Shown one piece after another: positions 4,240 through 58,596 of a DNA stretch of 64,000 nucleotides. Position numbers and translations under genes: made by a program. Source of the DNA: Vicinamibacterales bacterium (GTDB lineage Bacteria > Acidobacteriota > Vicinamibacteria > Vicinamibacterales > 2-12-FULL-66-21); contig DATFFM010000073.1 of NCBI GenBank assembly GCA_035250005.1, forward strand, positions 3,215-67,214, given 5' to 3'. The notes under the pieces were generated by a model. That model saw only the letters and a list, made by a program, of their open reading frames with translations. It was not told the DNA's origin and did no database searches. Numbering within the stretch: position 1 is the first letter of the stretch; the number at the start of each line of letters is the position of its first letter.

Positions 4240-6663
4240 CTAGTCCGCCCGCAGGGCGACGATCGGATCCACGCGCGCGGCGCGCCTCGCCGGGACATAG
4301 GCGGCAGCAAGTGAGACGACCGCGAGCAGACCGGCGACCGCCACGAACGTCGCCGGGTCATGGGGGCTGGTGTCGAACAGCAGCTGCGCGACCAGCCACT
4401 CGGTCAGGAGAAACGCCGCGACGACGCCGATGAGCACGCCGCCGGAGGCCATGACCATCGCCTCGCGGACGATGAGGCCGAGCACGGCACGCTGTCGGGC
4501 CCCGAGCGCCATGCGAATACCGATCTCGCGTGTCCGCTGCGCCACCGCGTAGGAGAGCACGCCGAAGATCCCGATGGCGGCGAGCGTCAGCGCCACGCCG
4601 GCGAAAACCGCCAGCAGCGTCATGTAGAAGCGCGGCTGGGAAATCGAGCGCGCGACCAGCTCCTCGAGCGTGCGGACGTTGGCCACCGGCAGGTTGCCAT
4701 CCAGGGAATAGACCGCGCGGCGCGCCGGCTCGGCGACGCTGCCGGCCGGCACCGCGGTCTTCAGGACGAGACTCATGCCCTGAACCGGCCACTGGCGGTA
4801 CGCCAGATAGATCTGCGGGGGATCGGGCTCGTCGAGACCGGCATCCTTGATGTCACCGATGACGCCCACCACCTCTCCGCCGGCGCGGGGTCGGTTCGGC
4901 CCGCGTCCCCAGCCAAGCGTGATCTTCTTTCCGAGCGGGTCCTCATTGCGGAAGTACTGCTTCGCCGCCGCCTCCGTGATCAAGACGACCGGGGGTGTGT
5001 TGGAGCGGTCGTCCTCGGAAAAGAAGCGCCCCTTTCTCAGCGGAATACCGATGGTCTGAAAGTACTGCGGGGTTGCGACGCGCACCTGCATGGCGGGCTG
5101 CTGCGACGGCGGCACGGGCGGGCGTCCGGCCACTTCGAACGTCAGGACGATGCTGCTGCCGCTGAGCGGCAGCGACAGGACGGCCGCGGCGGCTTCGACG
5201 CCGGGGATGGCTTCGAGGCGCGGCAACAGGGCGTCAAAGAACGCCACCTGCTGGGCCTCCTCCGTGTAGCGGGCGTCCGGCAGTGACACCTCGAAGGTGA
5301 GTGCCTCCTGGACGCGAAAGCCGGGATCGACCGACGCCAGTCTGCTGAAACTGCGGATCAGCAGTCCGGCGCCTGCCAGCAGGGTCACCGCAAGCGCGAC
5401 CTCCGCAACCACCAGCGTCGTCCGCATGCGGGCGCCGCCGCGGGTGGTGAGCGCGCCGCGCGCGCCTTCCTTCAGCGTCGTTGAGATCCCGCTGCGCGTG
5501 GACTGGAATGCCGGAACCGCTCCGAACAGCAGACCGGTGATCAGCGCCAGGCCCATGGTGAAGCCGATCACCTCGACATCGACGCGCACTTCGCCAAGCC
5601 GCGGGACGCCCTGCGGCTCGAGCGCAATGAGCGCCTCGACGCCCCAGACCGCCAGCAGGAGGCCGAGCGCGCCCCCAACCAGGCTGAGGATCAGGCTTTC
5701 GGTCAGGAGTTGCCGGATCAGCCGCCAGCGGCCGGCGCCGAGGGCGGCGCGAACCGCGATCTCGCTCTCGCGGGAGGCCGCGCGCGCGAGCAGCAGATTC
5801 GCCACGTTCACGCAGGCGATCAGCAGCACGAACCCGACCGCGCCGAGCAGGATCCAGAAGGCGGTGCGCAGGTCGCCGACCATTGCTTCGTGGAGCGACA
5901 CCGCCGAGATGTCGACTCCCTCATTGCTGTCGGGATACTGTTTCGCCAGCTGTCGCCCGATCGTCTCGATCTCGGCGCGTACCTGCTCGACCGACACGCC
6001 CGGCCGGGTCCGGCCAACCGCCTGGAGGTACCAGGCGCCGCGCTGGGTCGTGGTCAGATTCTCCGAGTACTCCAGCGGCGTCCAGATCGCGCGCGCGGCG
6101 GGGAACGAGAACCTGTCCGGCATGACGCCAACGATTTCGTGCGCGACGCCGTCGAGGGTCAGGCGCTTGCCGACCGCCGCCGGATCGCCGCCGAACCGCT
6201 GCTGCCAGAGGGCGTAGCTGAGAATCGCGACGTGCGTCTTGCCCGGCTCGTTCTCGTCGGCACGAAAAGTCCGCCCGAGGTGCGCCGCCACGCCGAGCAG
6301 GTCGAAGAGGGAGGCACTGACCTCGGCGCCGTCCAGCCGGACAGGCTCCCCCCGGCCGGTCAGAATAGTGCGGCTCCGCGTGTAGGCTGCCGCGTCCCGG
6401 AGCGTGGTATTCAGCTTCCGGACGTCGGTGAAGTTCGGCCCCGACAACGGTGCGCGCCGCCCTTCGGAGAGATGGTAGAGGCCGACGATCTGGTGCGGAT
6501 CCTTATACGGCAGAGGCTGCAGCAGAACGGCATTGACGACGCTGAAGATCGCCGTGTTGGCCCCGATGCCGAGAGCCAGGGTGAGCAGGGCGACGACGGT
6601 GAAGGCCGGGCTCTTGATCAGCCGGCGGAAGGCATATCGAATATCGTGTCCGAGCGTGTCCAT
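4240..6663 (-). CDS. MacB/FtsX-type duplicated permease, ADOP-like (paralog 1, no prefix domain)
   Basis: Starts [41 protein letters not shown]. Two MacB-periplasmic plus FtsX modules, each with an RTREIG(I/V)R(M/A)ALGA loop. C-terminal [17 protein letters not shown]. Upstream part of ORF 4240..7002 rejected. Confidence 0.9.
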
Positions 6664-7399: not shown

Positions 7400-7404
7400 C
7401 GTGC

Positions 7405-7433
7405 TTGCACTCCAGTAACGATTCGTGTTATAT
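7405..7433 (+). promoter_or_regulatory. candidate sigma70-type promoter with imperfect palindrome upstream of padR-1
   Basis: TTGCAC (7405-7410) - 17 nt - TTATAT (7428-7433). The spacer holds TAACGAtTCGTgTTA. GAGG lies 6 nt before ATG 7460. AT-rich patch in GC-rich DNA. Confidence 0.4.
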
Positions 7434-7459
7434 CCAACTTCGTCATAACGAGGTTCGAT

Positions 7460-7819
7460 ATGCCAAGAGACCTGGAGTCGGAGGTGCAGGCGCTATTGCC
7501 GCTGGCGCCGGCCTTTCTACATATCCTCATTGCCCTCGGCGAGGGGGAGCGGCACGGCTACAGCATCATGCAGGAGGTCGCCGACCGCACGTCAGGCCGC
7601 GTCCGGATGAGCCCCGGCACGCTCTACGGTTCGATCAAACGTATGCTCGCCGACGGCCTGATCGAGGAGCTGACCACCGGCACCGCCGGAGCCGACGAGC
7701 GACGCCGGTTCTACCGGCTCACCAAGTTCGGACGGCGGGTTGCGGCTGCCGAGGCCGACCGGCTCTCGTCTCTGCTGTTGCAGGCGCGGGCCTCCGGGCT
7801 CGTGCCGAAGCGGTCCTGA
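7460..7819 (+). CDS. PadR-family transcriptional regulator (module 1)
   Basis: 119 aa. Winged-helix PadR signature FLHILIALGEGERHGYSIMQEV...GTLYGSIKRMLADGLIEE...RRFYRLTKFG. Confidence 0.9.
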   Translation: MPRDLESEVQALLPLAPAFLHILIALGEGERHGYSIMQEVADRTSGRVRMSPGTLYGSIKRMLADGLIEELTTGTAGADERRRFYRLTKFGRRVAAAEADRLSSLLLQARASGLVPKRS

Positions 7820-7823
7820 AGCC

Positions 7824-10412
7824 ATGCCGCAGCCCCCCATCGTCGAGCGCCTCTACCGACTGCTGCTGCGCTGTTATCCCGGCGAGTTCCGCGACGACTA
7901 CGAGCGCGAGATGATGCGCGCCTTCAGGGAGCGCCTGGCGCACGATCGAGCGCTCGGCCCGGGCGCCGTGCTCCGCCTCGGTCTGCAGCTCCTGGTCGAC
8001 GCCGTCGTGCGCGCACCGCGGGAGCACCTCGACGTCCTTCGTCAGGACGGCAGGTACACCCTGCGCTCGCTCCGGAGTGCGCCGGTGTTCGCGATCACCG
8101 CGGTCGCGACCCTTGCGCTCGGTGTCGGGGCCAACACGGCCATCTTCTCTATCGTGCATGCCGTGGCGTTGAGACCGCTTCCGTACGAGGCCTCGGATCG
8201 CCTGGTGCGGATCTGGGAACGAAACGATTCACTGTCGATCCCCGATTTTGCGGTGTCGATGCCGAACTTCATCTCATGGCGCGAGCGCGCGACGACGGTC
8301 GACATCGTCGGCTGGCGCGGCGGGAGCGTGACGCTCCGCGGTCCTGGTGATCCGGTACGGGTTCAGTCGGTCAACGTGTCCCCCGATTTCTTCCGGTTGC
8401 TCGGGGTTACGCCGCTTGCCGGCCGCGTGCTGGTCGAGGCCGACACCGCTGCAAACGCCGGCAATCCGGCCCTGATCCGCGATTCGCTGTGGCGCGGTTA
8501 TTTCGGTGGGAGCCCGAACGTAGTCGGCAGCACGGTCACGATCGCCGGCCAGCCTTACACGATCGTCGGCGTCATTCCCGGGAGCAGCATCCCGCTCAGT
8601 GCGGAATTCTTCATGCCGCTGCGCTTCGATCCGACGACGGAAACGCGCGGCAACCGCATCGCCAACGTGATGGGCCGGCTGAAGCCCGGGTTCACGTTTG
8701 CTCAGGGGGAACAGGAGGTCCAGGCGATTGCCAGTCAACTGGAGTCGGAGTTCCCGGACTCCAACCGCAGATGGTCCATCACGATGACCTCGGTCTATGA
8801 CTGGCTGATCCCGGAAGAGACGCGGCGCGCGCTCTACGTTCTGCTCGGGGCCGTGGGCTGTGTGCTGCTCATCGCGTGCGCGAACGTGGCGAATCTGATG
8901 CTGGCGCGGACCGCCGCGCGCAGACGGGAGATGGCCGTCCGGCTGGCGATCGGTGCGGCGCGGCGCCGGCTCGTCAGGCAGGTCCTGACCGAATCGATGC
9001 TGCTGACCGCCCTCGGCGGAGCCGCCGGAATCCTGCTCGCGTACTGGGCCGTGCCGGTGATCCGGCAGTGGTTGCCGGAGACGCTCACCCGCGCCGATGA
9101 GGTGACAGTCAGCGCGCCGGTTCTCCTGTTTTCGTTCGGCGTCTGCATGCTGACCGGGCTCGCGTTTGCCGTGCTGCCGGCACTCGCGAGCTCCCGCGGG
9201 CATGTCACCGACTTCCTGAAAGAGGGCGGGCGCGGCAGCTCGGCGGCCGGCGCGACCCCCCGGCAGCTTCTCGCCGGGGCACAAGTCGCGCTCGCGACAC
9301 TCCTGCTGGTCGGCGCCGGCCTGTTCATCCAGAGCCTGCAACGACTGCAGCGCGTGGAGCTCGGCTTCGATCCACGCGGCATCACCACCGCGATGATGGG
9401 CGTACAAGGTGAACGGTTCGCGACGCAGGGCGGCCCCTGGAACCTCTTCTACCGGCCGCTGCTCGAACGTCTCGCCGCAGCGCCCGGCGTGGAGGGTGTG
9501 GCACTCTCCAGCGGCGCACCGTTTGGTGGAGGCAATACCGGCATGCCGATCAACGCCGTCGGCGACTCGCTGATGGGCGAGGCGGCGCTGCAGACCGACT
9601 GGCGGATGGTCAATCCGGACTACTTCAAGACCATGCGCATCCCCCTGCTGCGCGGCCGCTATTTCCGGCCCGGCGCCACCGACGAAAACGAGTTGATCGT
9701 CGCGGCGACGATGGCCAGGCGGATGTGGGGAGACGCCGATCCGATCGGCCGCCAGATCTCGGCGGGACCGAACGGCATCTGGACGGTGATCGGCGTCGTC
9801 GGCGACGTCCGGAACCTGGACCTCTCGCTCGCGCCGGCGCCGACGATGTACCTGTCGACGACCCGTTTCGTGTGGCCGACGATGACAGTCATCGTTCGCG
9901 CGGGCGAAGGGGCTCAGCCGGCAGCGCTGCTCCGCAACGCCGTTCGCGAACTGGATCCGCAGCTGGCGGTCTTCAACGTCCGTGAGATGGAGGCGCTGAT
10001 CGACGACAGCGCGGCCCAGCCACGGCTCAGTGCGTCGGTCGTGGGGCTGTTCGCCGGGATCGCCGCGGTGCTGGCCGCGATCGGCATCTACGGCGTGCTG
10101 GCGTATCTCGTGTCGCAGCGGACGCAGGAAATCGGCATCCGCATGGCGCTGGGCGCGAGCCGGCCCGCCGTGCTTCGACTTTTTCTCGGGCGCGGTCTGG
10201 TGCTCACGGCCGGCGGCCTGGTCGCAGGAGTCGCGGGGTCGCTCGCGATCTCGCGATGGGTGGGATCGCTGTTGTTCGACGTCCAGGCCAAAGATCCCTG
10301 GACCATTGCCATCGCCGGCAGTACGGTCGCGGCGGTGGCCCTGATCGCAGGCTACATTCCGGCCCGCCGCGCCACCAGGGTCGATCCGCTCACTGCGCTC
10401 CGGGCCGAGTAG
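7824..10412 (+). CDS. ADOP-like duplicated permease with N-terminal prefix domain (paralog 2)
   Basis: ATG 7824 lies 4 nt after the padR stop. About 70-aa extension MPQPPIVERLYRLLLRCYPGEFRDDYEREMMRAF... precedes [35 protein letters not shown]. Two FtsX modules. C-terminal PARRATRVDPLTALRAE. Confidence 0.9.
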   Translation: MPQPPIVERLYRLLLRCYPGEFRDDYEREMMRAFRERLAHDRALGPGAVLRLGLQLLVDAVVRAPREHLDVLRQDGRYTLRSLRSAPVFAITAVATLALGVGANTAIFSIVHAVALRPLPYEASDRLVRIWERNDSLSIPDFAVSMPNFISWRERATTVDIVGWRGGSVTLRGPGDPVRVQSVNVSPDFFRLLGVTPLAGRVLVEADTAANAGNPALIRDSLWRGYFGGSPNVVGSTVTIAGQPYTIVGVIPGSSIPLSAEFFMPLRFDPTTETRGNRIANVMGRLKPGFTFAQGEQEVQAIASQLESEFPDSNRRWSITMTSVYDWLIPEETRRALYVLLGAVGCVLLIACANVANLMLARTAARRREMAVRLAIGAARRRLVRQVLTESMLLTALGGAAGILLAYWAVPVIRQWLPETLTRADEVTVSAPVLLFSFGVCMLTGLAFAVLPALASSRGHVTDFLKEGGRGSSAAGATPRQLLAGAQVALATLLLVGAGLFIQSLQRLQRVELGFDPRGITTAMMGVQGERFATQGGPWNLFYRPLLERLAAAPGVEGVALSSGAPFGGGNTGMPINAVGDSLMGEAALQTDWRMVNPDYFKTMRIPLLRGRYFRPGATDENELIVAATMARRMWGDADPIGRQISAGPNGIWTVIGVVGDVRNLDLSLAPAPTMYLSTTRFVWPTMTVIVRAGEGAQPAALLRNAVRELDPQLAVFNVREMEALIDDSAAQPRLSASVVGLFAGIAAVLAAIGIYGVLAYLVSQRTQEIGIRMALGASRPAVLRLFLGRGLVLTAGGLVAGVAGSLAISRWVGSLLFDVQAKDPWTIAIAGSTVAAVALIAGYIPARRATRVDPLTALRAE

Positions 10413-11689: not shown

Positions 11690-14110
11690 TCAGTCGTTCC
11701 TCAACGCCACGATCGGGTCGACCGCCATCGCACGGCGGGCCGGAAGGTAGCTGGCGAGCGCCGCGATGATCGTCAGGAACAGAGCCACACCGCCGAAGCT
11801 CACCGGATCGGTCGGCGTGACGTTATAGAGGATCGACTGGATGATCCACGTGACCGCGGCCGCACCGACGAGGCCGCCGGCGATCCCCCACGCCGCGAGA
11901 CGCAATCCCTGCCCGACGATGAGCCGAAGGACGTCATGGCGCCCGGCGCCGAGCGCCAGCCGCACGCCGATCTCCTGGACGCGCTGCGACACCGAATACG
12001 ACAGCACACCGTAGACGCCGATCGATGCCAGCACGAGCGCGATGAAACCAAACGTCGCGAACATCGATCCAAACAGCCCGTACTGCCAGTAACTGAGGCG
12101 CCGCAGCTCTTCGACCGTCGTGACCGCGAACATCGGCAAGGTCGGATCCGAGAGGCGCAGCTGCTCGCGAACCGCCGACGTGATCTGCGCCGGGTCGCCC
12201 GCCACGCGGATCGTCAGCCCGGTGTTCAGCGTCGTCTCAAATGGATACGGCACGTAGGCGGCCGGCTCCTGCGGCTCCGTGTCACCGCCTTGCCGGTGCC
12301 GGAAATCGGCAACGATACCGATGACGGTGAACCAGTCCTGCGTGGAGCCATCCACCAGATGGAACCGGCGGCCGACCGGATCGGACCCGGGCCAGAGGCG
12401 CTGGGCCATCGCCTGATTGACCAGCGCCACGGGCGTACGGGTGGCCCCCTCTGCATTGGACATGTCCCGGCCGGCGACCAGCGCCACGTCGAGCGTCTGG
12501 CGCATGTGGGGGGTCACGCCGATCAGCTCGATTCCGGGTTCCCGGCCGGGTTCGACGGCGTTCCCCTCGACGATCACCCGCCCGCCACCGCCGCCGGCGC
12601 CCATCGGCACGAAGTTGGAGGCAAAGGCGGCCTGCACGCCGGGCAGCGACTCCACCCGGCGGACGATATCTTCCACTCGCCGCGCCTTGGCTTCGGCCGG
12701 TTCGTAGGCCGCGCCCGGCAGGTAGAACCGCATCGACATCAGCGGGCCGGTGTCGAAACCAACGGCCGCCCCCTGAAGGTTGAGAAAGCTGCGCACGAAC
12801 AGCGACGCGCCCACCAGCAGCACGAGCGACAAGGCGACCTCGCTGATGACGAGCGTGTTGCGCAGGCGCGCCCTGGAACCGCCGGCATGACCCCGGCCAC
12901 CGTCCTTCAGGCTGCTCTGCAGGTTCGTGCGCAGAGCCTGCATCGCCGGCGCGAGGCCGAAGACCAGTCCGGTGAGCAGCGAGATCGCGGTCGTGTACGC
13001 CAGCGACCGGGCGTTGAGGCTCCAGCTGATGAAGTACGGCACCTGGTCGGGAGGCATCGCCCCGTCGACCAGCCGGACACCGATCCACGCAATGGCCGCA
13101 CCGAGCGGCCCGCTGATGCACCCGATCATCACGGCCTCGGTCAGGAGCTGCCGGACGATCCGCCACCGGCCGGCGCCGAGCGCCAGCCGGATCGAGATCT
13201 CACGCTGCCGCACCGAGGCCCGTGCGAGAAGCAGGTTCGCGACGTTCGCGCATGCGATCAGGAGCACCAGCGTCACGGCGCCCATCATCGTCAGGAGCAC
13301 GAGCTCGACCTGTTGGGGCAGCATCCATTCGCCGAGCGTGCGCGTCGTGACGCTCCAGCCGGCGTTCTCGCGCGGATACGCGGTCGCCAGACGGGCCGCA
13401 ATGCCCGAGAGCTCGCTCTCGGCCTGCTGCTGCGAGACGCCCGGCTTGAGCCGCGCGAAGACGGAATGGATGGCTCCACGGGCGTCGCGCGGGGTGGCGT
13501 CCTGGTAGGGCGCGATCGTCACCCACAGCCGCTCGTTCTCGGGGAAGAGAAAACGTTCGGGCATTACGCCGATGATCGTGTGGGGTTTGCCGTTGACCAT
13601 GATGGCGCGGCCGACGATCGCCGCGTCCTTCTGGTAGCGCAGTTCCCAGAGCTCGTGGCTGAGGAGCACGACCGGTTCGGCCCCCGGCTTGTCGTCATCC
13701 GGCATGAAATCGCGTCCAGCGACCGGACGCATGCCGAGCAGGCCGAACAGATTCCAGCTGACCGTGGCGCCCGAAAAGCGTTCCGGCTCGCCTCTGCCGT
13801 CCGAGATCGTGAGGCTGCGGTTGGCAAACGCGGCGATCGATGCGATGGTCGAGGAGGAGTCGCGGATGTCCTTGAAGTCGGCGTACGAGAGCGTCCCCCT
13901 GGAAATGCGCTGCTCGTGATTGCGCGCATGCACCACGATGATGCGTTCCGGTTCCGGATATGGATACGGGCGCAGGATGACGCCGTCGATCACGCTGAAG
14001 ATCGTGGCATTGACGCCGATGCCCAGGGCCAGGCAGGCCACCGCAACCGCAGTGAAACCCGGACTTTTGACGAGTGAACGGAAGGCGTACCGAACGTCCT
14101 GCCTCAGCAT
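11690..14110 (-). CDS. ADOP-like duplicated permease (paralog 3, no prefix)
   Basis: 806 aa. Starts MLRQDVRYAFRSLVKSPGFTAVAVACLALGIGVNATIFS. Two FtsX modules (QREISIRLALGA, VQEIGVRLALGA). C-terminal [17 protein letters not shown]. Confidence 0.9.
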   Translation of the reverse strand: MLRQDVRYAFRSLVKSPGFTAVAVACLALGIGVNATIFSVIDGVILRPYPYPEPERIIVVHARNHEQRISRGTLSYADFKDIRDSSSTIASIAAFANRSLTISDGRGEPERFSGATVSWNLFGLLGMRPVAGRDFMPDDDKPGAEPVVLLSHELWELRYQKDAAIVGRAIMVNGKPHTIIGVMPERFLFPENERLWVTIAPYQDATPRDARGAIHSVFARLKPGVSQQQAESELSGIAARLATAYPRENAGWSVTTRTLGEWMLPQQVELVLLTMMGAVTLVLLIACANVANLLLARASVRQREISIRLALGAGRWRIVRQLLTEAVMIGCISGPLGAAIAWIGVRLVDGAMPPDQVPYFISWSLNARSLAYTTAISLLTGLVFGLAPAMQALRTNLQSSLKDGGRGHAGGSRARLRNTLVISEVALSLVLLVGASLFVRSFLNLQGAAVGFDTGPLMSMRFYLPGAAYEPAEAKARRVEDIVRRVESLPGVQAAFASNFVPMGAGGGGGRVIVEGNAVEPGREPGIELIGVTPHMRQTLDVALVAGRDMSNAEGATRTPVALVNQAMAQRLWPGSDPVGRRFHLVDGSTQDWFTVIGIVADFRHRQGGDTEPQEPAAYVPYPFETTLNTGLTIRVAGDPAQITSAVREQLRLSDPTLPMFAVTTVEELRRLSYWQYGLFGSMFATFGFIALVLASIGVYGVLSYSVSQRVQEIGVRLALGAGRHDVLRLIVGQGLRLAAWGIAGGLVGAAAVTWIIQSILYNVTPTDPVSFGGVALFLTIIAALASYLPARRAMAVDPIVALRND

Positions 14111-14157: not shown

Positions 14158-14243
14158 ACTCCAAACCTCAAACTTCAAACTCCAAACCTCCAAACTCCGA
14201 ATTGAATCTCGTTTTGGAGTTTGAGGTTTGGAGTTTGAAGTTG
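14158..14243. repeat. heptamer-built imperfect palindrome (ACTCCAA family); probable terminator hairpin
   Basis: Left arm 14171-14198 (aacttcaaactccaaacctccaaactcc) pairs with right arm 14214-14242 (ttggagtttgaggtttggagtttgaagtt), about 27 bp with one bulge. Both arms are made of 7-nt units. It sits between two minus-strand genes. Confidence 0.8.
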
Positions 14244-15425: not shown

Positions 15426-16190
15426 ATGCTCGAAGCCAGGCATCTCGGGAAGTTCTATTCAGGCATCCCGGCCGTGAAGGACGTCAACTTCACGCTGCGC
15501 GCCGGGGACGTTCTCGGCCTGCTCGGGCCGAACGGCTCAGGCAAGTCGACGACGGTGTCGATGCTCACCGGGTTGCTGGAGCCAACCACGGGACAGGTGC
15601 TGTTGAATGGGGACAGCATCCGGCAGGCGCCGCTCGAATACAAGGCGAAGATCGGCTACGTCCCCGAAGAAGCCCACCTTTATACCTACCTGACCGGCCC
15701 CGAGTACCTGGAGCTCGTCGGGCAGCTGCGTGGTCTTGCGCCGCGGGTGCTGGCCGAAAAGATCCAGGCCTTCATGCACATCTTCGGCCTCGAAGAAGAC
15801 CGCTACGCGCAGATGTCGGCGTACTCGAAAGGGATGCGGCAGAAGATCCTCATCGCGGCGGCGCTGCTGCACGATCCCGAGATCATCATTCTGGACGAGC
15901 CGAACTCCGGCCTCGATGTCACTTCGACATTGATTCTGCGCAGCCTGGTGCAGGAGCTCTCGGCCGCGGGCAAGCTGATCGTCTACAGCTCCCACGTGCT
16001 CGAGATCGTCGAACGAGTCGCCACCGACGTGCTGATCCTCCATGAGTCGAAAGTCGTCGCGCACGACTCGGTCTCGCGGCTTCGCGACCTGATGGCGCTG
16101 CCGTCGCTCGAGCAGGTGTTTCGAAAGGTCGTGATCGCCGAGGATGTCGATCAGATCGCGCGCGACGTCGTCGGGGTGATGAAGCTGTGA
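15426..16190 (+). CDS. ABC transporter ATP-binding protein (ABC-2 type)
   Basis: Walker A GPNGSGKST, signature YSKGMRQK, Walker B IIILDEP, H-loop SSHVLE. 254 aa. Confidence 0.9.
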   Translation: MLEARHLGKFYSGIPAVKDVNFTLRAGDVLGLLGPNGSGKSTTVSMLTGLLEPTTGQVLLNGDSIRQAPLEYKAKIGYVPEEAHLYTYLTGPEYLELVGQLRGLAPRVLAEKIQAFMHIFGLEEDRYAQMSAYSKGMRQKILIAAALLHDPEIIILDEPNSGLDVTSTLILRSLVQELSAAGKLIVYSSHVLEIVERVATDVLILHESKVVAHDSVSRLRDLMALPSLEQVFRKVVIAEDVDQIARDVVGVMKL

Positions 16191-17896
16191 CGCCCGAAGC
16201 GCAACAGACCCGGCTGCTGGCGCGGACGTTCTTTTCGCGCCTGTTCGAGACCGACCTCATGACCAGCAGCCACGGTCAGGTGCAGCTCGTCATCTCGGTC
16301 ATCGTGTTCCTCGCCGCCCCGGCATTGATCCTGCCCATCCTCGTCTCGAAGAAGTACTTCCGAATCAGGGATCCCGACCTGCTGCTCGCCGCGATGGCGC
16401 AGGACCGGACGATGGCGCTGCTGCTGGCGACGGTCGCGACCGCCATGATCACGCTGGTGCTCTGGGAGAACGTCTTTCCGGACCAGCGCGACAGCCGCCA
16501 CCTGGGCGTGCTCCCGATCAGGCAGCGGTCGTTCGTCCTGGCGAGGATGATCGCGATGGTTGCACTTTTCGTCATGTTGTTCCTCGGCACGACGGCGCTG
16601 GCCGCGGTCACGTTCGGCCTGACCGGTAGCATGTTCCACGCGTCAGGCGGCTTCTTTCGGATCGCGTTCGCCCACTTCATCGCGGTGGCCGGCGCGGAAG
16701 CGTTCGTCTTCTTCAGCCTGGTCATGCTGCAGTGCGCCCTGATGAGCATCGCGGGACCCGGCCTCGCCCATCGATTCGCCGTCGTCCTGCAGGTCGTGTT
16801 CGTCGTCACGGTGCTGCAGACCCCATTGCTGCTGCCCGGGCGTGAGGCTTTCCTCGCCGGCGGCGGCGGTGCGCCGCCGTGGTCGCAGGCGGCAACCGTC
16901 TGGGCACTGCCGCCCATGTGGTTTCTGGCCTTGTTCGAGTTCCTCGCACGGGGCGGTTATCCAGGAACCCGTGGGCTCGCGACGCTTGCGGCGATCGCCG
17001 GAGGCGGCACTCCGATCCTGGCGCTGGCGTTCTACGCCGCAAGCTACGGCCGCTTGACACGGCTGGCGATAGAAGGACGGCCGCTCCCGAAGGGACGCTC
17101 GACGCCCCTCCTGGCACGGGGCGTCTCGGCGGCGGTACGCGCGACCACGTCCGTGCCGGTTACGGCTGCCGTCTGCGCCTTTACGCTTCGAACGCTGGCA
17201 CGCAGCCGCCAGCATCGCATGCTCCTCGCCGGATGGATCGGCGTGGCGACGGCGTTCATCATTTCGTCGATCCTGCCGGTGGCCGTCCGGGTCGGGTGGA
17301 GTGCGTTCGAAAGACCTCACGCCGCCGTACTCGTCGGCCCGCTCATCCTTTCCGCACTGACGATCACCGGGATGCGGATGTTGTTCGCGCTCCCGGTCGA
17401 GATCCGTGCGAACTGGACGTTCCGGCTCCGGGAACCGGTAACGGTGTCGGAGGCCGTGAACGGGGCCGAGGCGGCGCTGGTCATCTGCGGCGTCCTGCCC
17501 GCGGTCGTATTGGCGCTCGTCTCTGCCGGATGGCTCTGGGGCATCACGGCCGGGCTGATGCACGCCGTGTTCTGCGGCGTGATGGCGATGACCGCCGTTC
17601 AGTTCCTGATGCGCGGCGTCGACAAGATCCCGTTCACGTGTACGTATTTTCCAGGCAAGGCACAGATCGGCAAGTTCTGGCCCCTCTATCTCACCGCCTT
17701 CACGACATTCACCTATTCGGCGGCCTTCTCCGAAGTGGCGTTGCTCGAGTCTCCCGTCGGGTACGGCGCCGCTGTCGTGGTTCTCGGACTGACGGGGGGC
17801 GCGCTCGCCTGGAGCCGGCGGCGCGATACGGCGCTGCTGCCCAACCTGCGATTCGAGGAAGAGCCCATGGACGGCTTGACGGTCATGTCCTTCTGA
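16187..17896 (+). CDS. large polytopic membrane protein, putative permease partner of the ABC ATPase
   Basis: 569-aa ORF whose start overlaps the ATPase stop (ATGA at 16187-16190). At least 10 hydrophobic segments. No conserved motif recognised by eye. Confidence 0.65.
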   Translation: MTPEAQQTRLLARTFFSRLFETDLMTSSHGQVQLVISVIVFLAAPALILPILVSKKYFRIRDPDLLLAAMAQDRTMALLLATVATAMITLVLWENVFPDQRDSRHLGVLPIRQRSFVLARMIAMVALFVMLFLGTTALAAVTFGLTGSMFHASGGFFRIAFAHFIAVAGAEAFVFFSLVMLQCALMSIAGPGLAHRFAVVLQVVFVVTVLQTPLLLPGREAFLAGGGGAPPWSQAATVWALPPMWFLALFEFLARGGYPGTRGLATLAAIAGGGTPILALAFYAASYGRLTRLAIEGRPLPKGRSTPLLARGVSAAVRATTSVPVTAAVCAFTLRTLARSRQHRMLLAGWIGVATAFIISSILPVAVRVGWSAFERPHAAVLVGPLILSALTITGMRMLFALPVEIRANWTFRLREPVTVSEAVNGAEAALVICGVLPAVVLALVSAGWLWGITAGLMHAVFCGVMAMTAVQFLMRGVDKIPFTCTYFPGKAQIGKFWPLYLTAFTTFTYSAAFSEVALLESPVGYGAAVVVLGLTGGALAWSRRRDTALLPNLRFEEEPMDGLTVMSF

Positions 17897-17904
17897 CGTT
17901 GGTC

Positions 17905-17945
17905 AACTCCCAAACTCCAAACTCCAAACTCCAAACTCCAAATGC
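17905..17945. repeat. heptamer tandem array (AAACTCC)n, same family and orientation as the left arm of 14158-14243
   Basis: aactccc aaactcc aaactcc aaactcc aaactcc aaatgcc, directly after the stop of the 569-aa membrane protein. Confidence 0.85.
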
Positions 17946-17983
17946 CCAGCTTCAAACGGCCAGGTTGAGACGAAAGCTGCGTG

Positions 17984-18013
17984 TTGACGCTAGTATCACT
18001 TTGATACTAGTAT
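17984..18013 (+). promoter_or_regulatory. candidate promoter plus perfect 9-3-9 palindromic operator upstream of padR-2
   Basis: TTGACG (17984-17989) - 18 nt - TAGTAT (18008-18013). CTAGTATCA-ctt-TGATACTAG (17990-18010) spans the spacer and the -10. Only 6 nt separate the -10 from ATG 18020, so the mRNA is probably leaderless. Confidence 0.5.
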
Positions 18014-18019
18014 CCCCGC

Positions 18020-18385
18020 ATGGCCAAGGCTTCCCCCCGGTACAATACCGAACAGCATCTCCCACTGAAACCGCTGGTCTTCCAGGTACTCCTTGCGCTG
18101 GCCGAGGGTGAGCGCCATGGGTGGAGTCTCGTGCGCGACGTCCAGCAGCGCGGCGGCTTCGGCCGGCTGATGCCGGGCAATTTCTACCGCACGCTGCGGT
18201 CCATGCTCGCGGACGGCTTCATCGAAGAGTGCCCGTCACGCCCGGCGGCGACCGACGACGACGAGCGCCGACGCTACTTCCGGCTGACGGCACTCGGTGA
18301 ACAGGTCGCGATCGCGGAAGCGAAGCGCCTGGAGGCTGCCGTGCTCGAGGCGCGCGCCCGAAAACTCCTGACGCGGCGGGGATGA
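18020..18385 (+). CDS. PadR-family transcriptional regulator (module 2)
   Basis: 121 aa. [23 protein letters not shown]...[18 protein letters not shown]...[10 protein letters not shown]. Confidence 0.9.
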
Positions 18386-21051
18386 TGACAGCGCTCGAAC
18401 GGCTGCTGTACCGGATCCTGCTGCTCGCGTTTCCGCGACGCATTCGCCGGGACTTCGGCGCCGACATGGCTGTGATGTTCGAGAAGCAACTGATCGAGAC
18501 CCGACCGGCGGGAGCGGGGCGTGCGCGCATCTGGGCGGCCGCCATCGTTGACGCGCTCGCCAATGGCGCCGCCGAACGCAGCCGGCCGCTGCAGGCGGCG
18601 GCGCTGGCTCTGCCCCGGGAAACCAGGCGATGGAGGTGGTGGATGTACGCAATTCGTCAGGACGTTCAGTACGCGATTCGGCTTCTCGCCAAGCAGCCGG
18701 GGATCACCATCATCGCGGTGCTGACCCTCGCGCTGGGGATCGGCGCCAACACCGCCATCTTCTCCGCCGTCAACGCTGTTCTGCTGCGGCCGTTGCCCTA
18801 CCCGGAGCCCGATCGCGTGATGATGCTGTGGGAGAAGCGGCCGGCCGAAGGGGTGTTCGACAACGTCGTGTCGCCGGCCGACTTCCTCGACTGGGCGCAG
18901 ATGCAGGGGGCCTTCGAGTCCCTCGCGGCGATCGTTCCGGTCGCAACCGACCTGACGGGCACGGGGGATCCGGTCCGCGTGTTCACCGGTGCGGTCTCGC
19001 CGTCGTTCTTCGATGTTTTCGGCACCCGGCCCATGCTCGGCCGGACGTTCAGGGAAGACGAAACGGTCCCGGGCAAACACCGGGTCCTGATCGTCGGGCA
19101 TCGCCTGTGGCAGGAGCGCTTCGGCTCCGATCGCGCGATCGTGGGCAGGACGATCGCGCTCAGCGGCGTGCCTCACGAGGTGGTCGGGGTGCTGCCGCCC
19201 ACGTTCGAGTTCCCCGACGACGAACTGGAGCTGTGGGTGCCGCTGACGTTTGCCGCCGGGGCCCAGCCGTCCCGCACGAGCCATTACCTCAACGTCTACG
19301 GACGGCTGAAGCCGGGCGTGACGCTCGAACAGGCCCGGATCGAGATGGATCGCATCGGCACGCAGCTGCAGCAGCAGTACCCGGATGCGAACCGGGCCCA
19401 CGGCGCGCATGTCACCTCGATGGCGGCGCAATTGAAGACGCCGGTCCGGTCTCCGCTCCTGCTTCTTCTCACCGCCGTCGGGCTGGTGCTCCTGATCGCG
19501 TGCGTCAATGTGGCGAACCTGCTGCTCGCGAAAGCGGCAGCGAGACGCCGCGAGATGGCGGTGCGTGCCGCCGTCGGCGCGGCGCGCGGCCGGCTTGCGG
19601 GTCAGATGATCACCGAGTCGGTCGTGCTCGCCCTGGTCGGCGGTACCGCCGGCCTGCTCGTGGCGTGGTGGGCGATCGGCGCACTCCGTCAGCTCGCGCC
19701 GGCCGGCATGCCGATCCTCGGTCTCGACCACTTTGCCCTCGAACCGCGAGTGCTCGCATTCACCTTCGTGGTCTCGCTGCTGACTGGGCTGGTATTCGGC
19801 GTGCTTCCGGCGTGGCATCTGGCGAGTCAGGACGTCAGCCAGACGCTCAGAGACGCAGGACGCAGCGCCGGCAGCGTGCGGCGGGGCCTCCGGGTGGCGC
19901 TGGTGGTCTCAGAGATCGCCCTGGCGTCACTGCTGCTGGTCGCCGCGGGGCTGACGGTTCGCAGCTTCCAGTCGCTGCTCGATACCGATGCAGGATTCCG
20001 GAGCGACGGCGTGCTCACGTTCAACATCACCTTGCCACAGTCGCGTTACGCGACCACCGAGGCACAACTCGCGGCCTTCGAGCGCGTCGGAGAACAGCTG
20101 AAAGTGCTTCCGGGTGTCGTCGTAGTGGGCGCGACCAGTTTCCTCCCACTCTCGGGGGCCGACGCGCGCCGCGGCGTGGGCATCGAAGGCCGGGAGCCGA
20201 CCCCTGATACGCCAACGCGCGCCCATCCCCGGCCGGTGACGCCCGACTACTTCCGTGCAATCGGGATCACCGTCAAGGAAGGACGAGGTTTCACGAAGAG
20301 CGACGACGCGAACGCTCCGCTGGTCGTGGTCGTCAACGAAACCATGGCACGCCGCTACTGGCCCGGCGTCTCACCGGTCGGAAAGCGCCTGACACTCGCA
20401 GGCGGCGACGTCTGGCGCGAAGTCGTCGGTGTCATCGCCGATGTCCGGCACTGGGGCCTCGATCAGGTCGTCAATCCCGAGATGTACTTTCCCCACGTGC
20501 AGCTGCCCTTCTCGTCGACCATGACCTTCGTCGTGCAGACCAGGACCGACCCCGCGTCGCTGGCAGCCGCAGCCCGGGAGCAGGTCAGGCTCATCGACCC
20601 GAATCTGCCGCTGTCGAAGGTACGAGGCATGAACGAGGTCGCCGCGCTGTCGATGGCGTCGCGGCGAGGCGGCATGCTCCTGCTGTCGGTTTTCGGCCTG
20701 CTGGCGCTGACCCTTGCGGCCGCGGGGATCTATGGAGTGATGTCCCACCTCGTCGCGCTCCGGCGCGCCGAGATCGGCATCCGCATGACGCTCGGCGCCC
20801 GGCCGTCCACAGTGATGAGTCTGGTGCTCAAGGAAGGCTTGCTTCAGACAGCCGCCGGTCTGACGATCGGCGTGGTGGGCGGGGTCCTGGCGATGAGAAC
20901 GTTCCGGGCGATGCTGTTCGAGGTGGAACCGGCGGACCCGCTCACGCTCGGAACCGTGACGATCCTTCTGCTTGCAACCGCCGCACTCGCCTGCATCGTA
21001 CCGGCACGGCGTGCCATGCGCGTGGATCCGGTAGAGGCGCTGCGCAGCTAG
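18382..21051 (+). CDS. ADOP-like duplicated permease with N-terminal prefix domain (paralog 4)
   Basis: ATG overlaps the padR stop (ATGA 18382-18385). About 90-aa extension [33 protein letters not shown]... comes before [39 protein letters not shown]-terminal [16 protein letters not shown]. Confidence 0.9.
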
Positions 21052-21938: not shown

Positions 21939-21980
21939 GGCATTCGGCATTCAGCGTTCAGCGTTCAGCGTTCAGCATTG
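21939..21980. repeat. heptamer tandem array (GGCATTC)2(AGCGTTC)3 AGCATTG
   Basis: Six consecutive 7-nt units between the amidohydrolase stop (21996) and the alpha/beta-hydrolase start (21909). Confidence 0.85.
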
Positions 21981-23693: not shown

Positions 23694-23728
23694 ATGCATC
23701 CAGCGTTCAGCGTTCAGCGTTCAGCCTT
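23694..23728. repeat. heptamer tandem array ATGCATC(CAGCGTT)3 CAGCCTT, direct copy of the 21939-21980 family
   Basis: Same unit and orientation as 21953-21973. It supplies the TGA stop (23721-23723, minus strand) of the PAP2 gene. Confidence 0.85.
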
Positions 23729-25009: not shown

Positions 25010-27502
25010 CTATTCCTCCCGCAGCGCCACCATCGGGTCCAGCCGTGACGCGCGCAGAGCGGGCAGGCCGCACGCGATGGCCGCGACCACGAGGAAGCCG
25101 GCGGCCATCGCGGCAAAGGTTGCGGGATCGGTCGGCTCGACGCCGACCAGCATGGTGCGCAGGACGCCGGTCAGCAGCAGCGCCGCCGCCACGCCCAGGA
25201 CGATGCCGGCGGCGCTCAGCCGCAGGCCCTGTACGACCATCATTCGGAAGATGCGCCCGTGCTCGGCGCCGAACGCCATGCGGACGCCGATCTCCGCTGT
25301 CCGTTGCCGCACCGTCGTCGAGAGGACGCTGTAGAGACCGACGGCCGCGAGCAACAGCGCGACGCCGGCAAAGATCGCGATCAGCACGAGCGTGAACTTC
25401 GTCTGTGCCCGCGCCCCGGCCACGTACGCCATCATCGGCTGCACTTCGATCGCCCCGGTCCGCGGATTCAGCTCGCTCACCAGCGCCCGGACGGCGCCGG
25501 CCAGTGCCGACGGATCACCGGACGCTCGTACCGCCCACCGGTTCGCCGGGCCATGGTTGAAGTAGCCGTCCGCGACAAACATGGCCTCACGCCCATCTCT
25601 CGCGAGCGACGCGTGACGCTGGTGGTCGACGACGCCGATGACCTCGTAGCGCTGCGGCTCCTGCGTGTTGATCCGGGCGACGATCGTTTTGCCGACGGCG
25701 CTCTGCCCCGGATACGCCTTGGCCGCAAGCAGCCGATCGATGATCAGGTACCGTGAGTCGGGCCGGTTATCCGCCTCGGTGTACTCCCGTCCTTCGATGA
25801 TCCGCGTGCGCATCGCCGTGAAGTATCCCGGCAGCACCACGTGCGTCGTCGCCTGCCCGAACTTCGACGGATCGCTGAGGGCCGCTTCCGTCCCCCAGCG
25901 GGCATTCGCCTCGCGTCCGTCCAGCGGGAGCGGGTTCGCCGCCGTCGCGTCGATGACACCGGGCATCGCCTTGAGCCGCTCGCGCATGTTGCGCATGAAT
26001 GCCTGACGCGCAGCAGGGTCCGGCAGGCGAAGGTTCGGAGTCGAGAACGTCAGGACGCCGCGAGGGTCGTAGCCCGGCTCGGCACGCTGCAGGGCGACGA
26101 AGCTGCGGATCATCAGGCCGGCGCCCACCAACAGGACGAACGACAGAGCGACTTCGGCCGTCACGACCGCCGCCCGCACCCAGCCGCCGGCCGACAGGTT
26201 GCCGGACCGGCCGGCCCTCCGCAGCAGATCCATGACGTCGGGGCTGGAGGCACGGACCGCGGGCACGAGGCCGAACAGCACGACCGACAGGAGCCCGGCC
26301 ACCGCGGCGAACGACACGACCGTCGGATCCACGCCGACGTCGCCGAGCCGCGGGAGATTCTCCGGTCCGAGCGCCACCAGCACGCGCACGCCGGCCCACG
26401 CGAACAGCAGGCCGACGCCGATCGCGGCGGCGCCGAGGAGCAGGCTCTCGGTCAACAGCTGCCTGAGCAGTCGACCACGCGTCCCCCCGAGCGCCGCGCG
26501 GACGGCGAGCTCGCGCTCACGGGCGGCGGCGCGAACGAGCAGGAGGTTGGCGACGTTGGCGCACGCAATCAGCAGCACGAACGTCACCGCACCCATGAGC
26601 GCCAGGATCACGGGACGAACCTCGCGAACGAGGTCTTCGTGCATCGGCTCGATCCGGAAGTTCATGCCGGCCGTGTGCTTGATCGGGAACCGCGAGCGCA
26701 GGTCGGCCGCCAGGGCATCGACTTCCCGCTGCGCCGATGCGATCGTCGCGTCGTCTCTCAGGCGCGCGATCACGCGGAGGAAAACGTTGATGCGCGAGCC
26801 GGCGGCAAAATCCAGGGTGAGCGGCGTCCAGACATCCGGCGCCGGCTCCACGTTGATGTCCGGCGGGTACAGCAGCTCGAAACCGGGTTCGAGCACGCCG
26901 ATGACCTCGAACGGCTGCTCGCCGAGGCGCACCACCGTCCCGACCACGGCCGGATCGCCGCCGAATCGGCGCTGCCAGAACGCGTGGCTGATGATGGTCC
27001 GCGGCGGCGGCGGAGGGGTTGCTGCAGCTGCGGGCGCCCCCTGTGGGCCGGTTTGCTGGGGCGGGGGTGGCGTGCCGTCGGCATCGCTGAAGTCGGATCC
27101 GACTGCCATCCGTGCACCGAGCACCCGGAAAAGGTTCGGCGTCGCGCCGCCGGTGCTGACCTGCTCGGCCTCGGATCGCCCCGGCGTCACGAAGACCTGC
27201 CGGCCCGTGACCAGTGCGGCAGTCCCCGAGAACGACTGCGCGGTGGTCCGCAAGTCGTGGAAGTCTGCCGGAGGCCAGGGAAAGTCCTCGACGTTGCGGG
27301 CCCGCATGTCGTTGGCGATGTGGACCAGACGCTCGGGCCGCTCGTACGGCAACGGCCGCAGCAGCACGGCATGGACGACGCTGAAAATCGCCGCCGCGAC
27401 ACCGATGCCTAGCCCGAGAGTGAGAATGGCAGTCAGGGTGAAGGCGGGCTTCTTGACGAACATCCGCAGGGCGTAACCGATGTCGCCGAGGAAGGTGCGC
27501 AT
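25010..27502 (-). CDS. ADOP-like duplicated permease (paralog 5, no prefix)
   Basis: Start ATG 27502: MRTFLGDIGYALRMFVKKPAFTLTAILTLGLGIGVAAAIFS. Two FtsX modules (ERELAVRAALGG, TAEIGVRMAFGA). C-terminal PALRASRLDPMVALREE. Confidence 0.9.
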   Translation of the reverse strand: MRTFLGDIGYALRMFVKKPAFTLTAILTLGLGIGVAAAIFSVVHAVLLRPLPYERPERLVHIANDMRARNVEDFPWPPADFHDLRTTAQSFSGTAALVTGRQVFVTPGRSEAEQVSTGGATPNLFRVLGARMAVGSDFSDADGTPPPPQQTGPQGAPAAAATPPPPPRTIISHAFWQRRFGGDPAVVGTVVRLGEQPFEVIGVLEPGFELLYPPDINVEPAPDVWTPLTLDFAAGSRINVFLRVIARLRDDATIASAQREVDALAADLRSRFPIKHTAGMNFRIEPMHEDLVREVRPVILALMGAVTFVLLIACANVANLLLVRAAARERELAVRAALGGTRGRLLRQLLTESLLLGAAAIGVGLLFAWAGVRVLVALGPENLPRLGDVGVDPTVVSFAAVAGLLSVVLFGLVPAVRASSPDVMDLLRRAGRSGNLSAGGWVRAAVVTAEVALSFVLLVGAGLMIRSFVALQRAEPGYDPRGVLTFSTPNLRLPDPAARQAFMRNMRERLKAMPGVIDATAANPLPLDGREANARWGTEAALSDPSKFGQATTHVVLPGYFTAMRTRIIEGREYTEADNRPDSRYLIIDRLLAAKAYPGQSAVGKTIVARINTQEPQRYEVIGVVDHQRHASLARDGREAMFVADGYFNHGPANRWAVRASGDPSALAGAVRALVSELNPRTGAIEVQPMMAYVAGARAQTKFTLVLIAIFAGVALLLAAVGLYSVLSTTVRQRTAEIGVRMAFGAEHGRIFRMMVVQGLRLSAAGIVLGVAAALLLTGVLRTMLVGVEPTDPATFAAMAAGFLVVAAIACGLPALRASRLDPMVALREE

Positions 27503-27536
27503 GGTCCGATTTGACACCTTGGTCCGATCTTTGACA
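27503..27536 (-). promoter_or_regulatory. direct repeat GGTCCGAT(n)TTGACA x2 abutting the start codon of permease paralog 5
   Basis: ggtccgatttgaca (27503-27516), cctt, ggtccgatctttgaca (27521-27536). On the coding strand this reads TGTCAAAgATCGGACC-AAGG-TGTCAAATCGGACC-ATG. Confidence 0.35.
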
Positions 27537-27583
27537 AGCGCGTTGGGACGAAACGGACGCCGGGCGGGCACGTCGGACGTGAC

Positions 27584-35488: not shown

Positions 35489-35511
35489 AGCGGATTGGAT
35501 AGAATCAACGG

Positions 35512-48328: not shown

Positions 48329-48706
48329 ATGCGACGCCCCCACCCGACCCTGACCCCGCAGGAACTGGCGATCATGAAGGTCATCTGGCGGCTCGAGAGC
48401 GCCACCGTACGGGACGTGTACGAGGCGCTTCGCGCCGAGCGCACGATCGCCTACACGACGGTGATGACGATGATGCGGATCCTGGAAGAGAAGGGCTATC
48501 TCCTCAAGGCGTCGGCCGACCGGGCCCACGTCTACACGCCGGCGAAACCGCGGCAGCAGGTCATGGGCGCCATGGTCCGCGACTTCGTCGACCGCGTGTT
48601 CGACGGCGCGCCGAATTCTCTGCTGCTCCACCTCGCCAGAGACAACAAGCTCACGCAGAAGCAGCGTCGGATCGTCCAGAAGCTCGTCGAAGACATCGAG
48701 GAGTGA
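48329..48706 (+). CDS. BlaI/MecI/CopY-family transcriptional repressor
   Basis: 125 aa. LTPQELAIMKVIWRLESATVRDVYEAL...IAYTTVMTMMRILEEKGYL winged helix. Confidence 0.9.
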   Translation: MRRPHPTLTPQELAIMKVIWRLESATVRDVYEALRAERTIAYTTVMTMMRILEEKGYLLKASADRAHVYTPAKPRQQVMGAMVRDFVDRVFDGAPNSLLLHLARDNKLTQKQRRIVQKLVEDIEE

Positions 48707-48708
48707 TC

Positions 48709-58529: not shown

Positions 58530-58577
58530 GTGTGCCCTCCTGCTCCTGTTGATCTTCAACAGAAGCCTGCCGTCGCT

Positions 58578-58596
58578 CATGTTGGACGTCAACATG
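58578..58596. promoter_or_regulatory. 7-5-7 inverted repeat, candidate PadR operator in divergent intergenic region
   Basis: CATGTTG-gacgt-CAACATG contains ATGT-N9-ACAT, close to the ATGT-N8-ACAT type reported for PadR operators. It lies between padR-3 (start 58529, minus strand) and permease paralog 7 (start 58676, plus strand). Confidence 0.5.

Follow-up and report, generated by a model that had tools for sequence, protein, structure and literature searches.

PadR-family repressors and ADOP permeases form gene pairs in Acidobacteria. Their families, TIGR03433 and TIGR03434, are usually encoded by adjacent genes; padR lies directly upstream of the ADOP gene, in the same direction, and the pairs are present in multiple copies. 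In the present study, we analyzed one such pair, padR-2 and the ADOP permease gene behind it, at positions 17984-21051 of a 64,000-nucleotide stretch of DNA from a Vicinamibacterales bacterium (Acidobacteriota; NCBI GenBank assembly GCA_035250005.1, contig DATFFM010000073.1, positions 3,215 to 67,214 of the forward strand). This whole stretch is called the window below. The pair is the second of three padR-linked modules in the window.

Short PadR repressors that control membrane-protein genes are known from Listeria and Lactococcus. In Listeria, PadR proteins encoded beside membrane-protein genes, one of which specifies a DUF1700 protein, act as repressors of their own operons (PMC6624303). 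For Listeria LltR, LstR, and LftR as well as Lactococcus LmrR-lmrCD, the short PadR gene stands first in, or next to, a membrane or transport operon, and autorepression acts via an inverted repeat (PMC6624303, PMC4534193, PMC3506622). The canonical PadR operator is the inverted repeat ATGT-N8-10-ACAT (PMC3506622). A signalling dyad of HAAS and a PadR-like winged helix-turn-helix domain has also been proposed, including fusions to FtsX-like transmembrane regions with MacB/PCD in Acidobacterium (Ravi et al., mSystems 2024, PMC11237479); the dyad has been proposed to pass a membrane signal on to PadR. A more distant parallel is the BlaI/MecI - BlaR1/MecR1 system, in which a winged-helix repressor gene with a palindromic, autoregulated promoter is followed by the gene for a membrane sensor that inactivates the repressor. 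Finally, in one class of leaderless genes of high-GC bacteria a TAnnnT hexamer begins about 12 nt before the start codon, and no Shine-Dalgarno (SD) sequence is present (Zheng et al. 2011, PMC3160421). The same computational survey put the share of leaderless genes at an estimated 9.7-19.4% in the three Acidobacteria genomes that it covered (PMC3160421).

We found that positions 17984-21051 probably constitute a two-gene operon of padR-2 and a prefix-bearing ADOP gene, which would be transcribed from a single self-repressed promoter as a leaderless mRNA, with the permease translated by reinitiation and its prefix relaying a signal to the repressor. The locus resembles the PadR/ADOP pairs in its gene order, but PadR-2 scores below TIGR03433, the permease carries 90 extra residues, and the promoter/operator is outside the family definitions. 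It resembles the HAAS dyad in that a standalone PadR is paired with a membrane protein bearing a small, predicted all-alpha cytoplasmic domain at the N-terminus; unlike in that dyad, the prefix has neither a DUF1700/HAAS-type Pfam match nor the GxP kink. Compared with the Listeria and Lactococcus operons, the operator, (CTA)GTRTCA-N3-TGAYAC(TAG), has a similar span but another sequence; in addition, LmrR senses drugs directly, and the genes of those operons have not been reported to be leaderless. BlaI/MecI and BlaR1/MecR1 belong to other protein families, and BlaR1 is a protease, whereas the prefix-bearing ADOP has no protease domain. From the TAnnnT-led genes, with their hexamer 12 nt before the start, uninformative middle bases, and lack of an SD, there is no essential difference, except that the -10 hexamer here additionally forms the outer end of an operator arm. 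The features of the locus are as follows.

17984..17989, + strand: -35 hexamer TTGACG, from direct reading and a consensus scan; the orthologue consensus is TTGACA.
17990..18010, no strand: putative PadR-2 operator, perfect dyad CTAGTATCA-ctt-TGATACTAG with its centre at 18000, from an inverted-repeat scan, conservation, and helix covariation.
18003..18014, no strand: overlapping 12-nt palindrome GATAC-TA-GTATC, perfect GATACTAGTATC, which pairs with 17986-17997 (GACGCTAGTATC) at 17-bp spacing; alternative register.
18008..18013, + strand: -10 hexamer TAGTAT (TAnnnT), from the consensus scan; the T, the A, and the last T are constant in 36/36 sequences, with no conservation of the three bases between.
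18020, + strand: predicted transcription start site at the A of the padR ATG (leaderless), 6 nt from the last T of the -10 hexamer to the ATG.
18020..18385, + strand: padR-2, a 121-residue PadR-family winged-helix repressor of the short type (PF03551).
18382..18387, + strand: stop/start junction ATGATG, in which the padR TGA (18383-85) overlaps either ATG 18382 (ATGA) or ATG 18385 (TGATG).
18382..18651, + strand: N-terminal prefix of the permease, 90 residues outside the ADOP model, with three predicted helices (residues 4-14, 19-43, and 47-66) followed by a linker.
18652..21051, + strand: duplicated FtsX/MacB-type permease core of the ADOP, with two MacB_PCD + FtsX units (TIGR03434).

The promoter is evident from direct reading. 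An earlier note on this DNA had placed TTGACG at 17984, TAGTAT at 18008, and the padR start at ATG 18020, with a gap of 6 nt and no SD, and all of these are present as it described them. The hexamers are 18 nt apart, and the gap (18014-18019, ccccgc) contains no SD. Since TAG at 18008-18010 is an in-frame stop, ATG 18020 is the earliest possible start of padR; and as the closest of 1744 PadR-2 homologues (73-88% identical) are nearly all 120-121 residues long, this start codon can be regarded as fixed. A consensus scan of both strands between 14000 and 22000 gave this promoter as the only sigma-70-like match. Its sequence places it in the sigma-70-type class, with a -35 hexamer, an 18-nt spacer, a TAnnnT -10 hexamer, and a putative dyad operator that fills the spacer.

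We then compared related loci, using one genome per species. The scan gave 45 loci from Vicinamibacterales and other Acidobacteriota and two outgroup loci; one locus was cut at a contig end, so that 44 loci and the window, 45 sequences in total, were compared. In the region before padR, a match to TTGACACTAGTRTCANNNTGAYACTA at a minimum of 20 of the 23 specified positions was present in the window and in 35 of the 44 loci, or 36 of the 45 sequences; the two outgroup loci matched at 12 of 23. The orthologous PadR proteins are 55-88% identical to PadR-2 and the flanks are unconserved, yet the position and the sequence of the motif are kept, with the consensus TTGACACTAGTRTCAnTTTGAYACTAnnnT. In the position matrix of the 36 sequences, each position of the -35 hexamer (motif positions 0-5) has the consensus base in 34-36 sequences; TTGACA and the TA of the -10 hexamer are thus essentially invariant, and the information content of neighbouring intergenic columns is 0.1-0.3 bit. 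Five bases after the TA, all sequences (36/36) have a T, and no conservation is seen at the three positions in between; this pattern is the TAnnnT signature of a -10 hexamer. This last T had been left out of the motif used for selecting loci. The invariance of TTGACA and TAnnnT therefore supports the promoter proposed in the earlier note.

The leaderless start is likewise supported by the related loci: the last T of the -10 hexamer is 5-9 nt from the start codon in 33 of the 45 sequences, and exactly 6 nt, the most frequent value, in 17, including the window. With a 6-nt gap, the canonical +1 position would be the A of the ATG. The first T of TAGTAT lies 12 nt 5' of ATG 18020 and no SD is found, as in the published leaderless geometry. 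That padR-2 is transcribed into a leaderless, or nearly leaderless, mRNA is thus well supported by the promoter geometry, and leaderless expression is ordinary in this lineage. As a separate observation, the only other good sigma-70-like match in the window (35476-35505; GGGACA, 18 nt, TAGAAT) ends 6 nt before ATG 35512 of a 168-residue open reading frame (ORF) and has the same leaderless geometry and the same spacer length as the padR-2 promoter.

The palindrome reported in the earlier note is present and perfect. Its arms, CTAGTATCA (17990-17998) and TGATACTAG (18002-18010), are 9 nt long and 100% complementary, and are separated by the loop ctt (17999-18001); the dyad occupies the whole 18-nt spacer and extends over the first 3 nt of the -10 hexamer. 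The palindrome by itself is not significant in the window: perfect inverted repeats with 9-nt arms and loops of 0-10 nt have 14 centres, against 7.1 +/- 2.5 expected under a Markov-1 model, and GTATCA-N3-TGATAC with up to two mismatches has 2 matches, against 0.5 expected. We therefore took conservation as the evidence. The dyad is also the most AT-rich of the 14 (6 of 9 arm bases) in a window with a GC content of 67%. Its conserved form is CTAGTRTCA-N3-TGAYACTAG. In this form, the TA at motif positions 7-8 (T in 35/36 and A in 32/36 sequences) is outside both hexamers and mirrors the TA of the -10 hexamer; as it has no promoter role, it is explained only by dyad symmetry with the -10 TA. The canonical PadR operator is not found here, because GTATCA-N3-TGATAC has no ATGT/ACAT pair; the span of the dyad resembles it, with arm centres 9-12 bp apart depending on the arm length taken.

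The half-sites covary with the recognition helix of PadR. Loci L035, L040, and L041 have the operator CTCTCA-ttt-TGAGAC, and in these three alone the recognition helix reads NFYR(V/A)LK; the remaining loci combine the helix NFYRTLR with GTRTCA/TGAYAC. The covarying pair is thus T58/R60 with GTRTCA and V/A58/K60 with CTCTCA. Two of the three loci have a paralogue in the same genome (L023 and L035 in DATEGZ01; L026 and L040 in CAVSQJ01). Each of these genomes contains one module with GTGTCA...TGACGC and NFYRTLR and another with CTCTCA...TGAGAC and NFYR(V/A)LK, and therefore co-resident modules have diverged in both operator and helix. This suggests that co-resident padR-2-like paralogues may be insulated from each other. 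The covariation, the best available evidence on this question, points to the cognate PadR as the likely reader of the dyad.

The earlier note had proposed a search for further copies of GTATCA-N3-TGATAC. In the window there is one exact copy. In 302 kb of related loci, GTRTCA-N3-TGAYAC has 43 matches with up to one mismatch, every one of them in a padR promoter, and no additional regulon members were found in this sequence surrounding the orthologues. A metagenome scan with the exact pattern gave 120 matches, of which 47 are in contigs with a GC content of at least 0.60 and 73 in low-GC contigs. Among the high-GC matches, 32 of 47 adjoin a PadR gene (29 padR-2-like and 3 from a more distant PadR lineage); the remaining ones adjoin genes for hicA-like toxins or ribbon-helix-helix proteins, or an uncharacterized gene. 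No PadR gene was found near the 73 low-GC matches. The matches without an adjacent PadR gene were considered as regulon members and rejected, as they cannot be tied to PadR-2. In six metagenome loci with a GC content of about 65% (L084, L089, L115, L126, L143, and L146; variants in L088, L138, and L152), CTAGTATCA-N3-TGATACTAG lies a few nucleotides upstream of a HicA-like toxin gene of 62-70 residues and presumably serves there as operator for an unrelated toxin-antitoxin system. In L081, L097, and L139, the padR promoter region is shared with a divergent gene for a membrane protein of 255-257 residues; the window has no such gene. In L123, a 628-residue ORF is divergent from the padR-2-like gene, and its N-terminus (…LLPIAEREEVLADLEAEY…) resembles a different helical prefix motif.

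PadR-2 is a member of the PadR family (PF03551, 40.4 bits, cut-off 27, residues 23-96). With 121 residues, of which about 25 (97-121) extend past the Pfam domain and would form a single C-terminal helix, it belongs to the short, LmrR-like type (subfamily 2). Its nearest solved structures are the PadR proteins 5zqh, 5zhc (Rv3488), and 5dym; the PDB matches are 102-117 residues long. PadR-2 scores 32.7 bits against TIGR03433 (padR_acidobact), far under the cut-off of 101.8, and hence represents a separate PadR lineage. PadR-1 of module 1, which is 48% identical to PadR-2, is also below this cut-off (54.1 bits).

The junction of the two genes is compact. In nearly all loci, the ADOP gene starts between -4 and +13 nt relative to the padR stop, which agrees with the bicistron proposed in the earlier note, for which that note had also conjectured a tightly fixed stoichiometry between repressor and permease. 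The ATGA overlap at 18382-85 exists in the sequence but is not conserved (about 15 of 41 loci; 1-nt overlaps in 3-4 and short gaps in the rest), and the second in-frame ATG at 18385 makes the permease start in the window ambiguous. The public gene call (P0230, 888 residues) uses this second ATG (18385-87) and thus has a 1-nt TGATG overlap. No SD-like sequence is found at a useful distance before the permease start; the G-rich bases at this place code for the R-R-G conserved at the C-terminus of PadR. As the ADOP starts follow the padR stop so closely in nearly all loci and no SD precedes the permease start, probable co-transcription of padR-2 and the permease gene, with some translational coupling, is well supported.

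The permease ORF (18382-21051) matches TIGR03434 with 947.3 bits (cut-off 622.3), with positions 1-802 of the model aligned to residues 91-889. Both PF12704 and PF02687 match two stretches each, and there is no ABC_tran match; the protein is thus a permease without an ATPase domain. Because the ADOP model starts at residue 91, the 90-residue prefix is real. Its homology to the module-1 prefix, claimed in the earlier note, is borne out by 28% identity (pairwise E 8e-7), and the two represent one prefix type. The consensus of the prefix is YRLLLLAFPxxxRREFGxDMxxxF...W..A..DA..HG.AER, with invariant Y10, L14, P18, R22, M29, and D57. A phmmer search of 1.84 billion representative sequences gave 109 clusters with the prefix; the match begins within the first 20 residues in all but four, and full-length members have about 860-900 residues. 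One protein, P0145, in which the prefix is at residues 123-188, was considered as a PadR-prefix fusion and rejected as a frameshift-ridden assembly artefact.

In an AlphaFold2 model, the prefix has the three helices listed above, a disordered linker, an amphipathic helix (81-104), and the first transmembrane helix (106-124). In MacB, the ATPase domain sits N-terminal to the first transmembrane helix. The prefix should be cytoplasmic, judging from its place before the first transmembrane helix, from the arginines that flank this helix (the positive-inside rule), and from the alignment with MacB and its topology. Neither single sequences nor the set of 35 members gave a Pfam or NCBIfam match to the prefix. 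At E values up to 10, none of the 35 prefix sequences matches DUF1700, DUF1129, or DUF1048 (PDB 2O3L), and none matches the NCBIfam model perm_prefix_1 (NF038403, 59 positions). A search of PDB with the prefix profile gave only a spurious match (E = 2.2), and Foldseek against PDB gave nothing below E = 4. The GxP kink of HAAS is absent among the invariant and near-invariant columns of the prefix; helix 3 shows D57...G62.AER66. The domain perm_prefix_1 occurs on the third padR-linked ADOP of the window and is not similar to the module-2 prefix (hhalign probability 0.3%).

The gene context gives another picture, since the standalone padR-2 lies directly upstream of the prefix, with overlap, and HAAS domains adjoin a standalone PadR-like gene. 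HAAS domains have a core of three consecutive alpha-helices before the transmembrane region; the three helices of the prefix are modelled at moderate confidence. The prefix may work like a HAAS domain, judging from its context and not from its sequence. The window contains seven ADOP genes and three padR genes: all three prefixed ADOPs (3/3) are directly behind a padR gene, and none of the unprefixed ADOPs is (0/4; 4240-6660(-), 11690-14110(-), 25010-27571(-), and 58607-61141(+)).

The conserved spacer can be read as three or four alternating half-sites, which allows two registers. The functional sites might be 14-bp TGAYAC-TA-GTRTCA palindromes, or TTGAYACTAGT direct repeats, placed 17 bp apart and occupied by at least two dimers in an array, with the 21-nt palindrome as a by-product; we consider this unlikely. 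In the window, such sites would have their centres at 17991/92 and 18008/09 (TA-type matches are found at 17985 and 18002), and both a 14-nt direct repeat (17984-97 and 18001-14) and the perfect GATACTAGTATC (18003-14) fit this register. The symmetry of the left TA-type dyad in the main clade is also comparable to that of the N3 dyad, with similar counts of complementary pairs across the sequences compared, and a fourth half-site, TAGTRTCA, is found 17 bp further upstream in about half of the loci. However, the left half-site is the -35 consensus TTGACA and hence is already accounted for, conservation of the right TA-type dyad does not extend beyond the -10 hexamer (pairs 23/26 to 21/28 are complementary in 8-14 of 45 sequences), and L035, L040, and L041 retain the N3 dyad only. 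The loci with four half-sites, to which the window does not belong, are most simply taken as a pair of N3-type dyads at 17-bp spacing. It is improbable that the spacer is the site of another regulator, or that PadR-2 is an activator, so that the link between padR and promoter would be a shared regulon signal. The exact palindrome does adjoin hicA-like and ribbon-helix-helix genes and an uncharacterized gene in high-GC metagenome contigs, but the motif occurs nowhere else in the 302 kb around the orthologues, and the change in the operator tracks that in the recognition helix, also between paralogues of one genome. A site between the -35 and -10 hexamers, moreover, is in the position of a repressor, and the studied PadR-family proteins LmrR, LftR, LltR, and LstR autorepress (PMC6624303, PMC4534193).

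We give still less credit to an RNA hairpin that would serve the upstream ABC-2 operon (15426-17896) as terminator or processing site, or would form a 5' structure within a longer padR leader. The region 17975-18030 folds at -19.6 kcal/mol (z = -2.7), a modest energy, but the stem is not followed by a U-tract, a terminator scan was negative there, and no Rfam match was found. The conservation is that of -35 and -10 hexamers and of a DNA dyad, including TAnnnT with its invariant last T, and the two kinds of mismatch at the variable arm position, G/T in 9 loci and A/C in 6, are about equally frequent, which indicates no preference for wobble pairs. A functionless chance palindrome might be suspected from the excess of perfect 9-nt-arm inverted repeats in the window (14, against about 7 expected); this idea can practically be discarded, being refuted by the conserved position and sequence in 36 of 45 sequences whose PadRs are 55-88% identical and whose flanks are unconserved. 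Several observations nevertheless weigh against the self-repressed operon. The covariation of helix and operator is essentially one evolutionary event, and in L010, L024, and L028 the right arm is asymmetric (GAGAG) while the recognition helix is unchanged. The 17-bp-spaced palindromes suit the main clade about equally well, which leaves the operator register ambiguous, and the dyad is unlike the canonical PadR operator. In a few orthologues, the -10 hexamer and the start are 16-31 nt apart. The prefix model is moderate only (mean pLDDT 62, about 70-75 over the first 40 residues), and the prefix has no detectable similarity in sequence or fold to HAAS/DUF1700, perm_prefix_1, or any PDB entry.

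For the self-repressed operon, which remains our preferred explanation, we propose the following mechanism. From the sequence features, their conservation, the covariation of operator and helix, and the co-occurrence of prefix and padR, we infer PadR-2 binding and repression, the transcription start site, the coupling of translation, and contact between PadR-2 and the prefix. A PadR-2 dimer would occupy CTAGTATCA-N3-TGATACTAG, covering the spacer and the TA of the -10 hexamer and abutting the -35 hexamer, and would therefore exclude RNA polymerase, so that the operon represses itself. On derepression, transcription would begin at, or no more than about 3 nt from, the A of ATG 18020 and yield a bicistronic mRNA; padR-2 would therefore be translated as a leaderless message, without an SD. 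The permease would be translated by termination and reinitiation at the overlapping ATGATG. These steps, namely the block by the dimer, the leaderless bicistron, and reinitiation, are supported by conservation and by the Listeria and Lactococcus precedents. The cytoplasmic three-helix prefix, in place of the MacB ATPase domain, may then relay the periplasmic or membrane state of the permease to PadR-2, and would be the most likely relay partner, sequestering or releasing the repressor; it is the co-occurrence of prefix and padR that suggests this last step.

The other two modules of the window differ in their details. In module 1, padR-1 (7460-7819) has a promoter TTGCAC-17 nt-TTATAT, a 26-nt leader, and GAGG 7 nt before the ATG (region 7400-7830), and the permease ATG (7824) is 4 nt past the padR-1 stop, without overlap. 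Short ACGA/TCGT inverted repeats (ACGAtTCGT, TCGTcataACGA) are found at the place expected for an operator. In module 3 (55531-58673, minus strand), a PadR gene (MSDGRLLL...QGTLDLMVLKTL...) is followed by the ADOP with the N-terminal perm_prefix_1. A perfect palindrome, CTCATGTTG-N5-CAACATGAG (58576-58598), overlaps the candidate starts of padR-3 in a region shared with the opposite ADOP gene (58607-61141), and it may be another operator. The window also contains a BlaI/CopY-like repressor gene (48329-48706) that overlaps by 4 nt a BlaR1-like gene (48703-50763) whose product has two TonB C-terminal domains; this is a further pair of repressor and membrane sensor, joined by the same type of junction.

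Upstream of padR-2, the window contains a co-directional ABC-2 transporter operon (15426-17896). Its ABC ATPase (15426-16190) was considered as a partner of the orphan permease and rejected, as it is of the DrrA/GldA-type ABC-2 class and not of the FtsE/LolD/MacB type; its gene overlaps by 4 nt a 569-residue ORF (16187-17896) without a family match. Tandem heptanucleotide repeats of 4-6 copies are found within or bordering several inter-ORF gaps (1948-1987, 14158-14198, 14213-14242, 17905-17957, 21940-21979, 23701-23725, and 61141-61210), one of them directly upstream of the padR-2 promoter. The units are CGTGCTG, ACTCCAA with its inverted partner TTTGGAG 15 nt away, AACTCCA, GCATTCA, CAGCGTT, AATCCCT, and GATCAGG. 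At the same place, orthologous loci have short tandem repeats with other units (GATCCCC in L008, ATTGGGn in L023, and a unit of about 17 nt in L035). The window heptamers resemble the cyanobacterial heptamer repeats called 'STRR'.

PadR-ADOP pairs, autorepression by PadR, signalling pairs of PadR and helical prefixes, and leaderless genes in Acidobacteria have already been described. As every element has a precedent, the current understanding is unchanged; the useful new details are the operator consensus, the covariation of helix and half-site, and the uncatalogued prefix family. Few gene families of soil Acidobacteria are as expanded as the ADOP permeases. The locus offers a precise and testable regulatory unit for them, consisting of a 30-bp promoter/operator consensus, a cognate 121-residue repressor, and a pair of recognition helix and half-site. 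The conserved 70-residue domain, which is probably cytoplasmic, lies outside Pfam and NCBIfam, and is found only alongside PadR, is an obvious place to seek orphan-permease signalling. As a tentative extension, which we consider less likely than not, the prefix may be an uncatalogued PadR-partner domain that replaces the MacB ATPase, and the prefixed ADOPs may be, rather than transporters, the sensor halves of a one-step transmembrane signalling system in which a membrane-anchored anti-repressor is paired with a PadR repressor, expanded in Acidobacteria into many insulated paralogues with their own operator and helix codes, as are the pairs of extracytoplasmic function sigma and anti-sigma factors. 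If this is true, leaderless translation and coupling would make each new repressor together with its sensor.

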